Positions 6,958-34,405 are shown, numbered from the stretch's first letter. The stretch is DNA of 64,000 nucleotides from Minisyncoccota bacterium (GCA_041662525.1 JBAZSF010000003.1:14187-78186), one strand, 5' to 3'. Numbers and translations are program-made. The notes: generated by a model not told the origin, from the letters alone.

Positions 6958-7533
6958 CACTTTATCTCCTATTGCTAGAAGTGTGGACTATATCATCTTC
7001 ATATCTTTTTTAAAAAAGACTTAGAAGCAAGGCGCTTCCACCGACAACTTGTCGATGTACTCCAATAAATGGATAGTCTCTACACCTTCCCTAACACAAT
7101 GTTAGGGCTTGGCTCGGGATTACCCTGAGAGTTTGTCTCGAAGGGCTTCCCCGAATTCACCTTGTTTTTCAACCTACCTTTCAATAGGAAGCTGCGTAAT
7201 ACCTTCATGTATTTCCATATGACAATTTGCACACAAGAGAACGCATTTTTCAATTTCTTTTTTAATACGTTCCCAAGATCTCGTTAACCCCCTAGAAGAA
7301 AGATCAAATTCTTTTTCTTTTGGATTAATGTGATGAAAGCTTAAAGCTCTCTGACATTTCTTATAGCCACATAAAATACATTTACCGCCTTTATGATCTC
7401 TAGCCATTTCACGAAGTTTTTTTCTTCTTCGGCTAACAGCTAAAACCATATATTCTCGACGATCGGCATAGGTTCTGGTTTCTACTCTTTTCTTTTTGGT
7501 ATACACAAGTAGATTATACCACAAACCTCTGAC
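6958..7533 (-). mobile_element. group I self-splicing intron (IC3-like core) carrying an HNH endonuclease ORF
   Basis: A 576-nt insertion sits between anticodon-loop nucleotides. The 5' exon ends in U and the intron ends in G. The 3' 216 nt contain AAUCCCGAGCCAAGCC and GGGAAGGUGUAGAGACUA ... UAAGUC (P7-like GACUA/UAGUC), resembling cyanobacterial tRNA-Leu group I introns (from memory). Confidence 0.7.
7174..7449 (-). CDS. HNH homing endonuclease (intron-encoded)
   Basis: Motifs CILCGYKKCQ ... HHINP ... CANCHMEIH give an HNH zinc-finger nuclease signature. The ORF track starts at a TTG (7524); the first ATG gives 91 aa. The ORF lies wholly inside the intron. Confidence 0.75.
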   Translation of the reverse strand: MVLAVSRRRKKLREMARDHKGGKCILCGYKKCQRALSFHHINPKEKEFDLSSRGLTRSWERIKKEIEKCVLLCANCHMEIHEGITQLPIER

Positions 7534-7690: not shown

Positions 7691-7766
7691 GGGCCCATAG
7701 CTCATCTGGTAGAGCGCCTCATTTGCAATGAGGAGGTAAGGAGTTCGAGTCTCCTTGGGTCCACCA
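7691..7766 (+). tRNA. tRNA-Ala(UGC)
   Basis: 76-nt cloverleaf GGGCCCATAGCTCATCTGGTAGAGCGCCTCATTTGCAATGAGG...TTCGAGT...TGGGTCCACCA with anticodon TGC and the G3-U70 Ala identity pair; CCA is encoded. Confidence 0.9.
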
Positions 7767-9465: not shown

Positions 9466-9574
9466 TTACTACATCATTCTTTTAATCTCTAGCTGTCTAT
9501 GCAATGCAAGGATTTCTAAATTAGATTAATAAAAAAATCTTTCCCACAAAGAAAAGATTTTCGACATTATCTTT

Positions 9575-22225: not shown

Positions 22226-22346
22226 CCACGAATTACGAAACATAACTTTTCGCAGGGGTTTCGAGGCTGACGAGCCGAGAACTTCAGGATTTTTTTTACC
22301 AGAAAAAAATCCGTACCGAAGAAAAGTTATGTTTCGTAATTCGTGG
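22226..22346. repeat. MITE-like palindromic element copy 1 (perfect 26-bp terminal inverted repeats)
   Basis: ccacgaattacgaaacataacttttc at 22226-22251 is exactly the reverse complement of 22321-22346; internal hairpin aggattttttttacc agaaaaaaatcc. Confidence 0.7.
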
Positions 22347-23342: not shown

Positions 23343-23346
23343 TTAT

Positions 23347-23491
23347 GAATTACAAAACATAAACTTTTCTTCGGTACGGATTTTTCGAAGCTTGAAAAAT
23401 CTCTTCGAGCCTGAAGCTCTCAGAGCCGAAGGCCTGAAGTTCTCGGATCGACAGCCTCGAAACCCCTGCGAAAAGTTATGTTTTGTAATTC
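23347..23491. repeat. MITE-like palindromic element copy 2 (inverted relative to copy 1)
   Basis: TIRs gaattacaaaacataaacttttc and gaaaagttatgttttgtaattc; the reverse complement matches the copy-1 core (ttcgcaggggtttcgaggctg.cga.ccgagaacttcagg). Confidence 0.7.
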
Positions 23492-23503
23492 AAAAAAAAT
23501 CAC

Positions 23504-33091: not shown

Positions 33092-34405
33092 CTACTTCAA
33101 ATATCTCTTTAAAAATTCTTCTTTAAATTCAAAAAAGTTGTCATCCAGAATAGATTGACGAATTTTTTTGACTAAGTTTACTATAAAATACAAGTTATGA
33201 GTTGAAGCTAAGGTGCCGGCAAGCATTTCTTTGCCGTGAAAAAGGTGCGCAATGTATGCTCTGGTGTAATTCTTGCACGAATAACATTCGCAATCTTTTT
33301 CAATAGGCGCAAAATCGTCTCTATATTGAGTATTTAATATATGTATTTTCCCATTTTTTGTGTAAATTGTTCCATTCCTCCCAAGGCGTGTAGGTAAAAC
33401 ACAATCAAAGAGATCTACTCCATTTTCGATGCCCATAAACAAATCTTCTGGTTCACCTATGCCTAGCAAGTGACGAGGTTTTTCTTCTGGTAATATTTCA
33501 TTTACCCATTTTACCGCGGTAGACATGTCCTCTTTTGCAAAACTCCCACCAATACCAAAACCATCAAAGTCCAAACTACTAATGAATTTTGCAGATTGTT
33601 TACGTAGATTTTCATCTCTCCCGCCCTGTACAATGCCGAAAAGCGCTGTAGAAAATTCTCTTTTTTGGGGTGTCTCGCAGGCTGACGAGCCGAGAGGCAG
33701 CGCTGGGCTAGCAAGCCCAGACAGCGACCCCAAAGAAGAGGAATTTTCTCCAGCGCTTAATTTCTGATGCTCTCGCAAGCTTCTCTCTGCCCAACGATGC
33801 GTTCGCTCTAGGGCTTCTTCTTGATATTTTAAATCCTCCGTCGGACTAGTGCATTCGTCAAAAGCAAAAATTATATCCGCACCCAAATTGTGCTGAATCT
33901 GAATTGATTTTTCCGGAGTGATGTAATGAATAGATCCATCAAGATGCGATTTAAAAGAAACACCGTCTTGCCCTATTTTTGCTAAACGTGGCGCATCGCT
34001 ATCATCAAAACGCTCAGGAATTAAAAGTGACGGATCAGTAATTTTTAAAAGTTTGGATATATCTTTACCATAAGCGACACCTAAAGAAAAAACTTGAAAT
34101 CCTCCAGAGTCAGTCATTGTGGGTCCTTTCCAATTCATAAACTTCCCTATCCCCCCCGCCCCTCGCACTATTTCATCCCCTGGTTGTAAATATAGATGAT
34201 AAGTATTTCCGAGCACCACTTGTGTGCCGGCTTCCCTCACCTGTTCCGGATTTAAAGACTTTACTGTGGCCTTGGTCCCCACAGCCACAAAAGCCGGAGT
34301 ATGTATAACCCCATGCGGAGTCTCTAAAACTCCCACCCTCCCCAGACATGTTTTACCGGCTCCGCCTTTGCTATTCTTTAATTTTTTTTCTATTTTAAAT
34401 TGCAT
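33092..34405 (-). CDS. tgt: queuine tRNA-ribosyltransferase (tRNA-guanine transglycosylase) with an in-frame ~36-aa insertion
   Basis: GRVGVLETPHGVIHTPAFVAVGTKATVK, LFGIVQGG and a C-terminal Zn-binding CxCxxC...H. The extra segment SAGENSSSLGSLSGLASPALPLGSSACETPQKREFS is encoded by the palindromic element. Confidence 0.85.
   Translation of the reverse strand: MQFKIEKKLKNSKGGAGKTCLGRVGVLETPHGVIHTPAFVAVGTKATVKSLNPEQVREAGTQVVLGNTYHLYLQPGDEIVRGAGGIGKFMNWKGPTMTDSGGFQVFSLGVAYGKDISKLLKITDPSLLIPERFDDSDAPRLAKIGQDGVSFKSHLDGSIHYITPEKSIQIQHNLGADIIFAFDECTSPTEDLKYQEEALERTHRWAERSLREHQKLSAGENSSSLGSLSGLASPALPLGSSACETPQKREFSTALFGIVQGGRDENLRKQSAKFISSLDFDGFGIGGSFAKEDMSTAVKWVNEILPEEKPRHLLGIGEPEDLFMGIENGVDLFDCVLPTRLGRNGTIYTKNGKIHILNTQYRDDFAPIEKDCECYSCKNYTRAYIAHLFHGKEMLAGTLASTHNLYFIVNLVKKIRQSILDDNFFEFKEEFLKRYLK
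33641..33758. repeat. palindromic (MITE/RPE-like) element inserted in-frame in tgt
   Basis: About 30-bp imperfect inverted repeats aagcgctgtagaaaattctcttttttgggg and ccccaaagaagaggaattttctccagcgctt flank a GC-rich core that shares the 17-mer aggctgacgagccgaga with intergenic element copy 1. Confidence 0.65.

Follow-up and report, generated by a model that had tools for sequence, protein, structure and literature searches.

A palindromic repeat in frame within the tgt gene of a Minisyncoccota bacterium, a probable RPE-like element of Patescibacteria

How does a housekeeping enzyme come to contain a peptide that is written in a DNA palindrome? The question is raised by the queuine/tRNA-guanine transglycosylase gene (tgt) of a Minisyncoccota bacterium, which lies on the 64,000-nt stretch analyzed here (GCA_041662525.1 JBAZSF010000003.1:14187-78186; hereafter the window) and contains, at 33641-33758, a 118-bp palindromic repeat, E3. 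We consider E3 to be, probably, a translated, non-autonomous palindromic repeat of Nomurabacteria/Paceibacterota-type Patescibacteria that sits in frame in tgt and behaves like the Rickettsia palindromic elements (RPE). The host gene (33092-34405, minus strand, 437 aa) was recognized from its open reading frame (ORF), which matched Pfam TGT in two separate stretches (E = 6e-137) and solved Tgt structures in the PDB in an alignment split by the insert (E = 2e-98), and which contains the motifs DSGGFQ, GIGEPED, and CxCxxC...H. The gene is conserved in the genomes compared.

The inverted repeat of E3 consists of two 30-nt arms (33641-33670 and 33729-33758) that are 80% complementary and enclose a 58-nt spacer. 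As RNA, its plus strand is predicted to fold at -70.5 kcal/mol (z = -8.3) and its minus strand at -61.4 kcal/mol (z = -7.3), with 0/200 shuffles as good for either strand. Arms and folding scores agree with an earlier note on this DNA, which had described a palindrome with inverted termini of ~30 bp and a GC-rich core. The core, of a class that we term type 2, is oriented on the plus strand, antisense to tgt. From the third base of L216 through codon L255, the element is in frame and free of stops; the note, too, had the reading frame preserved. The palindrome encodes Tgt residues 217-255 (SAGENSSSLGSLSGLASPALPLGSSACETPQKREFSTAL). The note's further claim, an insertion of ~36 residues encoded exactly by the 118 bp, held only in part: the palindrome encodes 39 residues, whereas the net gain of the protein is 31 residues (93 nt). 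Its description of tgt as essential was an assumption.

The insert was delimited by alignment with homologs, the check that the note had called for, and insert-free homologs do exist. The distance from THRW to LFGIVQGG is 53 residues in the window Tgt vs 22 in insert-free close relatives (P0066, P0079, P0087, P0094, P0109, L002, and L131-133). Among the 120 closest Tgt proteins, which are 77-89% identical and carry the source labels Nomurabacteria, Paceibacterota, or Patescibacteria, it is 22 residues in a few and 41-83 in the remainder. The short, insert-free state appears to be ancestral, because in a further sample of 80 tgt loci (42-82% identity) the region measured 26-32 aa in all distant Tgt, as well as in some close ones, and long, strongly folding inserts were confined to the near clade. 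About half of the 120 closest proteins have the same core at the same site, which argues that E3 is not a private recent insertion and that its history has been mostly vertical.

In the alignment to solved structures, query residues 211-246 were unmatched and stood opposite only six residues of the Z. mobilis Tgt chain; the insert falls ahead of the LFGIQQG strand, with chain residues 182 and 189 on either side. An AlphaFold2 model computed from a 16-sequence alignment was unusable (predicted local distance difference test score, pLDDT, 39), so the predicted exposure of the insert as a surface loop draws on this alignment and on general knowledge of the TIM barrel. A position at the N-terminal end of the LFGIVQGG barrel strand, away from the active-site face, would explain why such a loop is tolerated, and E3 is probably read as an extra, disordered loop of ~30-40 residues. 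A second lineage-specific insertion in the same protein served as a control. Residues 110-140 (window 33986-34078; ~31 aa relative to Z. mobilis Tgt) are invariant among relatives from the Candidate Phyla Radiation (CPR), show protein-level conservation, and are not palindromic (z = +1.2). They represent an ordinary lineage-specific loop, in contrast to E3.

The core of E3 recurs outside tgt. The 17-mer AGGCTGACGAGCCGAGA is present exactly at 33679-33695 and 22264-22280 and with two mismatches at 23441-23457 on the minus strand; by chance, 0.04 occurrences would be expected, and three matches were obtained in 0/100 shuffles. The other two sites belong to intergenic elements with an AT-rich core, type 1. 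E1 (22226-22346, plus strand) lies between divergent saccharopine-dehydrogenase-like and amino-acid-kinase genes and has perfect arms of 26 nt that include the terminal repeat GAATTACGAAAC. E2 (23346-23492, minus strand) occupies the spacer between amino-acid-kinase and asd genes, which is empty in a relative (L005). All three elements align across the center, and a covariance model built from 40 copies (R1) detected exactly these three in the window, at 82.2 bits for E1, 53.1 bits for E2, and 86.4 bits for E3 (E = 9e-21). R1 also matched the copy in the tgt gene of L001 and one between genes in L005. It gave a single weak match in 470 kb around diverse tgt genes and found none in IMG/VR, where 47 contigs contained the 17-mer, all by chance. 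A scan with AGGCTGNCGANCCGAGA against one genome per species returned at least 119 stretches; among the matches listed, ~55 were clear family members, all from metagenome-assembled genomes of Patescibacteria (labeled Nomurabacteria, Paceibacterota, Minisyncoccia, or Saccharibacteria), and the remainder were chance matches in GC-rich genomes. From these searches we conclude that the family is lineage-restricted and sparse, with about one copy per 20-40 kb. It comprises three subtypes of equal length: type 1 (E1, E2), type 2 (E3), and a third variant, type 3.

The earlier note had connected E3 with the palindrome at 22226-22346 through the 17-mer and had proposed one family that invades both intergenic DNA and ORFs. 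The 17-mer is exact in both elements, far above chance; E1 and E2 are intergenic, and in-frame copies are present in five genes, so both proposals are upheld, and the wider search for the core that it had suggested recovered the members described above. The note would have yielded to a lineage-specific loop had all related Tgt carried the segment and the 17-mer been found nowhere else; we found empty relatives and further copies of the 17-mer.

The 19 type-2 copies gave a gap-free alignment and fit a T-shaped three-way junction in which a long stem, P1, closes two hairpins, P2 and P3. In E3, the left arm (33641-33671) forms the 5' half of P1 and pairs with the right arm (33727-33758), with covariation of alignment columns 10-23/79-92. 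P2 (33672-33698) reads GUCUC-GCA-GGCU(GACG)AGCC-GA-GAGGC and includes the 17-mer. P3 (33700-33725) has an AGCA loop and a variable stem with fully compensated changes, and it encodes a variable stretch of five residues. One unpaired A separates P2 from P3, and one unpaired G follows P3. The consensus of P2 is G-UCUC/GCA/GGCU(GNCG)AGCC/GA/GAG-C. Over the 19 copies, pairing holds in 94.6% of cells, and both sides have changed in 17 pairs (105 cells), a level of support that was reached by 0/500 shuffles and compares with 37-44% for slid controls. The closing pair of P2 (alignment columns 24/50) is G-C or C-G in every copy, the P3 pairs 57-61/66-70 show both-side changes in 2-10 copies with 98.9% of cells paired, and the junction and loop bases are invariant. 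An RNA-strand signature was not found in the arms: their mismatches (G.T 43 vs A.C 35) show no strand bias, so that they behave like a palindrome of DNA. Predicted folding favors the plus strand in 37 of 42 copies, chiefly on account of a conserved U-G pair in P2; at one P2 pair, U-G alternates with C-G.

Several copies depart from this plan. An extra GC-rich hairpin is nested in the P3 region of E2 (~23395-23440) and likewise in the copy at L102:2243-2390; both are otherwise normal type-1 copies and amount to palindromes within palindromes. Four copies (L045:7801-7935, L070:7788-7922, L053:2521-2655, and L017:2949-3106) are longer, 135-158 nt, and possess an outer module, TGAATTACGAAACTCGTCG[AC]AGG ... 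CC[TA]AGAAAGAGTTTCGTAATTCA, in which a conserved, asymmetric bubble and the core are coupled in polarity; the module wraps type-1 or type-3 centers. These longer copies may be the full-length form of the element. The same four loci share with E1 and E2 the terminal inverted repeat TGAATTACGAAAC, which is absent from E3 and the other in-gene copies.

Pfam identified the in-frame hosts as Tgt, the UvrD/PcrA helicase, TsaD, the CCA-adding enzyme, and Fmt. Among the matches listed, tRNA is the target of four of these five hosts (Tgt, TsaD, the CCA-adding enzyme, and Fmt), which may be chance in so small a sample. The copies deep inside long ORFs are type 2, plus one type 3, and just two translations were seen: GSLS-x5-ALPLGSSACETP where the core is antisense to the gene, and G[VL]SQA[DV]EPRGSA-x5-DSDP (GVSQADEPRGSA..DSDP) where it is sense. 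Inversion of the palindrome converts one of these frames into the other. A flip is possible because the whole element is palindromic, and either orientation is tolerated in a coding region because both partner frames of the GC-rich subtype are open. Both orientations were indeed present at the Tgt site (the window, L015, L091, and L095 vs L001, P0058, P0065, P0089, and P0114), at the UvrD site (L038, L101, and L123 vs L106), and at the TsaD site (20 antisense vs 24 sense among 118 homologs). Intergenic copies showed no orientation bias relative to neighboring genes. In one tgt allele (L091:5751-6000), the segment after the core is tandemly duplicated (CCCCAAAAAGACTCCTC twice), giving a region of 83 aa. 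A profile search for host proteins with eight peptides gave only two matches at E <= 1 among 5.8 billion sequences, since so short a motif cannot become significant among that many.

The tgt site is also occupied by other sequences. At least a dozen further inserts were found there (types C to G and more), and all of those examined as DNA are palindromes with identical outer boundaries; the site also has alleles that are empty or keep only a short remnant (L130, L137, and P0100). R1 does not recognize types C-G. In BLAST searches, types D and E recurred elsewhere in other genomes with a conserved center and copy-specific arms, and they therefore represent further repeat families. Two such families (L018:3193-3238, L104:146-190, and L101:4925-4952; L070:1637-1683 and L104:2485-2506) have cores in common with the type E and the type D inserts in tgt, each with a GC-rich center and copy-specific AT-rich arms. 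TsaD has a single site, between GGPQISKLAE..K and LPRPM, which is empty in nine of the 118 homologs and otherwise accommodates type-2, type-1-like, and type-3-like cores, each in both orientations, a family-E-like core, and tandem doubles. The tandem doubles in P0172, P0194, and P0147 combine two different cores, and the region spans 89-95 aa there vs 27. Proteins that are 85-90% identical outside the site contain unrelated inserts or none. With the insert masked, a neighbor-joining tree of Tgt had the insert types interspersed, which we take as a hint because the tree is without support values.

Some arms appear to be host sequence. The type C and type E tgt alleles have common outer arms, GAAAATCAGAAA / TTTCTGATTTTC, of which the left encodes ENQKQ(A) and matches native DNQKQIA of the empty allele L135; the right arm is therefore an inverted copy of host codons. 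Across 15 alleles, arms were closer to the native segment than shuffled arms were (Fisher p = 7e-4), a result that is no more than suggestive because the alleles are non-independent. Many different TsaD cores share flanks such as EKQSLRG ... PEKI[SG]FS, the left of which is native KGKQSS; the opposite arm is its inverted copy, as in tgt. One arm of E3 also appears to be host sequence: the right arm, which is the 5' arm in the tgt sense, encodes SAGENSSSLG and resembles the native NTENKISLFG segment. A rule that arms are always host-derived was rejected. It fails for E1 and E2, whose arms (GAATTACGAAAC) are common to copies in other genomes, so that arms can also travel with the element; and at the CCA site, empty in L027 and occupied in L082, the comparison of arm origin was ambiguous.

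The most constrained part of the element is its center. In tgt alleles with the insert in common, identity at third codon positions is 33-49%, which amounts to saturation, and the center outside the P3 stem is nearly identical at the nucleotide level in the 19 type-2 copies. In 62 type-A Tgt proteins, gathered with a regular expression that somewhat favors the core, core-encoded residues are 79-100% conserved, with one at 63%, compared with 26-85% (most 30-60%) for arm-encoded and 32-71% for P3-encoded residues. The constrained unit is an asymmetric center of ~60 nt; the long arms vary among copies, their changes arising in pairs. Arms and center at one locus are probably of the same age, and since the center alone is conserved, it is either under sequence-specific selection or repeatedly homogenized or replaced. 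The center may owe its constancy to recognition, whether by a mobilizing enzyme or by a host factor.

This conservation is the main reason for keeping an alternative in view, namely that the element is not merely selfish and is kept by the host as a functional structured nucleic acid (bound, for example, by a structure-specific protein as hairpin or cruciform DNA, or acting as a structured RNA), with the in-frame copies being functional sites that happen to sit in tolerant loops. Invariant junction and loop bases, strongly covarying stems, a core length that is constant across three subtypes, and a center conserved while synonymous sites of tgt are saturated and the arms diverge are all features that a functional element would have, and better folding of the plus strand together with the U-G/C-G alternation in P2 fits a single-stranded form of one strand. 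We nevertheless consider a host function unlikely, given that both orientations occur at the same site, that intergenic copies are oriented without bias toward their neighbors, that arm mismatches are strand-symmetric, that copies are sparse (three in 64 kb of window and one weak match around tgt genes) and their sites empty in some relatives, that different cores replace one another at one site, and that no Rfam family matches.

In a second alternative, the segment is removed from the mRNA, either as a small intron of unknown mechanism or through cleavage by RNase III and ligation, and the peptide is never made. The long stem would bring the two junctions together, and a group I intron elsewhere in the window indicates that introns exist in this genome. 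Yet the region is uninterrupted in 120/120 of the closest Tgt proteins, and 18/18 insert-bearing tgt DNA alleles are open; the latter were recovered through conserved peptides elsewhere in Tgt, so that their retrieval was blind to the frame of the insert. All alleles examined, with more than 10 unrelated inserts in five host genes, are open and in frame, which removal would not need, and a single pair of partner frames is used. The constant in-frame state thus favors translation over removal from the mRNA, which we regard as very improbable.

Window-wide and permissive local Rfam scans gave, at E3, only generic long-hairpin (microRNA-precursor) matches far below threshold, with no intron or ribozyme family even at E <= 10. 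A group I or group II intron or other intervening sequence was rejected on the grounds that the element has no Rfam match and the frame is always kept, and a self-cleaving ribozyme on the absence of a ribozyme match at that cutoff. A hammerhead reading of the CUGANGA-like string CTGACGAG also fails: the string forms the loop and stem of P2, a variable base falls on the invariant hammerhead A6 position, there is no GAAA/stem arrangement, and Rfam returned no match.

An ordinary lineage-specific protein loop with a protein-level role, in which palindromy and the 17-mer are incidental, could explain why many relatives have GSLS..ALPLGSSACETP at the same position, but it is already contradicted by the same nucleotide core in intergenic DNA and four other proteins, by the unrelated peptide that results from opposite-strand reading in some Tgt, UvrD, and TsaD alleles, by the unrelated or missing inserts of otherwise closely similar proteins, and by the fact that every insert is a DNA palindrome, unlike the genuine loop at residues 110-140.

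We therefore return to E3 as a translated palindromic repeat and ask how such an element might move. One tentative possibility, which we hold well below the identification of the repeat itself, is that the exchangeable unit is the T-shaped center of ~60 nt alone. The core would enter, or be swapped, at the tips of existing hairpins, and the long arms would arise by fold-back or template-switch copying of adjacent host sequence, so that a dedicated transposase would not be needed. A few loops of housekeeping enzymes (Tgt, TsaD, UvrD, and others) would then become permanent "landing pads", at which cores of several families could be swapped and flipped with the frame kept. The near-invariant junction bases might be what an undiscovered enzyme recognizes, or might reflect an activity intrinsic to the folded strand. 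Entry at hairpin tips and fold-back formation of an arm are the most speculative steps of this account.

Several points weigh against E3 as a mobile, translated, essentially selfish repeat. Translation is argued for by frame conservation, its one basis, and surface exposure is predicted from alignment, with the structural model unusable. Purely selfish decay does not easily explain a near-invariant center in vertical-looking copies whose synonymous distances are saturated, and the pattern points to function or ongoing homogenization. The conserved part is the center and not the termini, the reverse of a classical MITE (miniature inverted-repeat transposable element). A target-site duplication could not be read at E2 (against L005) or at the CCA gene (L027 vs L082), where the genomes are too diverged. 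No autonomous parent or transposase turned up in the window or loci, in which no systematic search for one was made. The available genomes held no near-identical pair differing by one copy, so that recent movement is without direct support.

Among known systems, RPE are the closest in behavior. They are palindromic repeats of 100-150 bp in several subfamilies, dispersed in a small reduced genome, both intergenic and in frame within many unrelated housekeeping genes; they encode a conserved peptide, their orthologous sites are occupied or empty in relatives, and no transposase is known for them (Ogata et al., 2000, as summarized in PMC10969869). Measured against that summary, E3 and its family mirror RPE, as the earlier note had proposed, in size (~100-150 bp), palindromy, subfamilies, intergenic and in-frame copies, a conserved peptide, and occupied and empty sites. 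The likeness is behavioral and not sequence-based, and homology to Rickettsia RPE-1 to RPE-10, which belong to a different phylum, is unlikely. The Patescibacteria family differs in its conserved asymmetric T-shaped center, its copy-specific arms with one host-looking arm, its two orientations at one site, and its hot spots with many cores, differences that are drawn against the summary description in PMC10969869 and not against the primary papers.

MITEs such as Correia/CREE, ERIC, BOX, and RUP are likewise short, non-coding, hairpin-forming, and multi-copy, with occasional in-frame fusions to ORFs, and a subset of our copies shares the terminal inverted repeat TGAATTACGAAAC. The conservation of this family is central rather than terminal, and a classical MITE defined by conserved termini was rejected because the arms of E3 are unrelated to those of E1/E2 or of the UvrD, TsaD, and CCA copies. 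Repetitive extragenic palindromes (REP) and their mosaic arrays (BIME) are simple hairpins of 20-40 bp with a conserved GTAG/CGTC head, extragenic and associated with RAYT transposases; E3 exceeds 100 bp, is branched, and belongs to a family also found inside genes. Integron attC sites stand beside gene cassettes, and their stem base carries conserved R''/R' core sites (RYYYAAC...GTTRRRY). This identity was rejected as well: here the stem base varies between copies, the conserved bases are central, and there is no cassette context.

Two further comparisons concern form. The T-shaped inverted terminal repeat of parvoviruses such as adeno-associated virus (AAV) has a long palindromic stem, two small unequal hairpins, about one unpaired base at the junction, and flip and flop orientations. 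The Patescibacteria element shows the same T shape and two orientations, a structural analogy only that implies no homology; it is a chromosomal interspersed repeat and not a genome terminus, and no Rep/HUH protein or nick site was identified. In fungal mitochondria, GC-rich palindromic clusters and double-hairpin elements spread in AT-rich compact genomes, in coding regions too and with nested insertions, and some hairpin elements are bypassed by the ribosome and not translated. The Patescibacteria elements resemble them as GC-rich hairpins that spread in compact AT-rich genomes, coding regions among them, and that include nested cases. Hosts and sequences differ, and frame conservation in Patescibacteria argues for translation.

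The window contains other structured elements. A full-length Rfam LOOT RNA motif lies at 10314-10433 on the plus strand (81.2 bits vs a gathering score of 46.4) and is followed by a further hairpin. A group I intron was detected at 6965-7261 on the minus strand (68 bits in Rfam); near it, ARAGORN found only tRNA-Ala at 7691-7766 on the plus strand. A match to the SAM riboswitch at 9564-9666 on the minus strand is at threshold (44.6 vs 44.4 bits).

To our knowledge, detailed accounts of "selfish" palindromes lying in frame come mainly from Rickettsia, and a full-text literature search returned no paper on palindromic, MITE-like, or in-frame repeats in Patescibacteria or Parcubacteria. An independent and richer system in the CPR suggests that such remodeling of proteins recurs in reduced genomes. 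Variable loops of 30-40 residues in CPR housekeeping proteins, often taken for "CPR-specific insertions", can be repeat DNA and not adaptive protein features. With its T-shaped center, flip-flop orientations, host-derived arms, and interchangeable cores, the family offers a testable case of how palindromes may be born and move without an obvious transposase.

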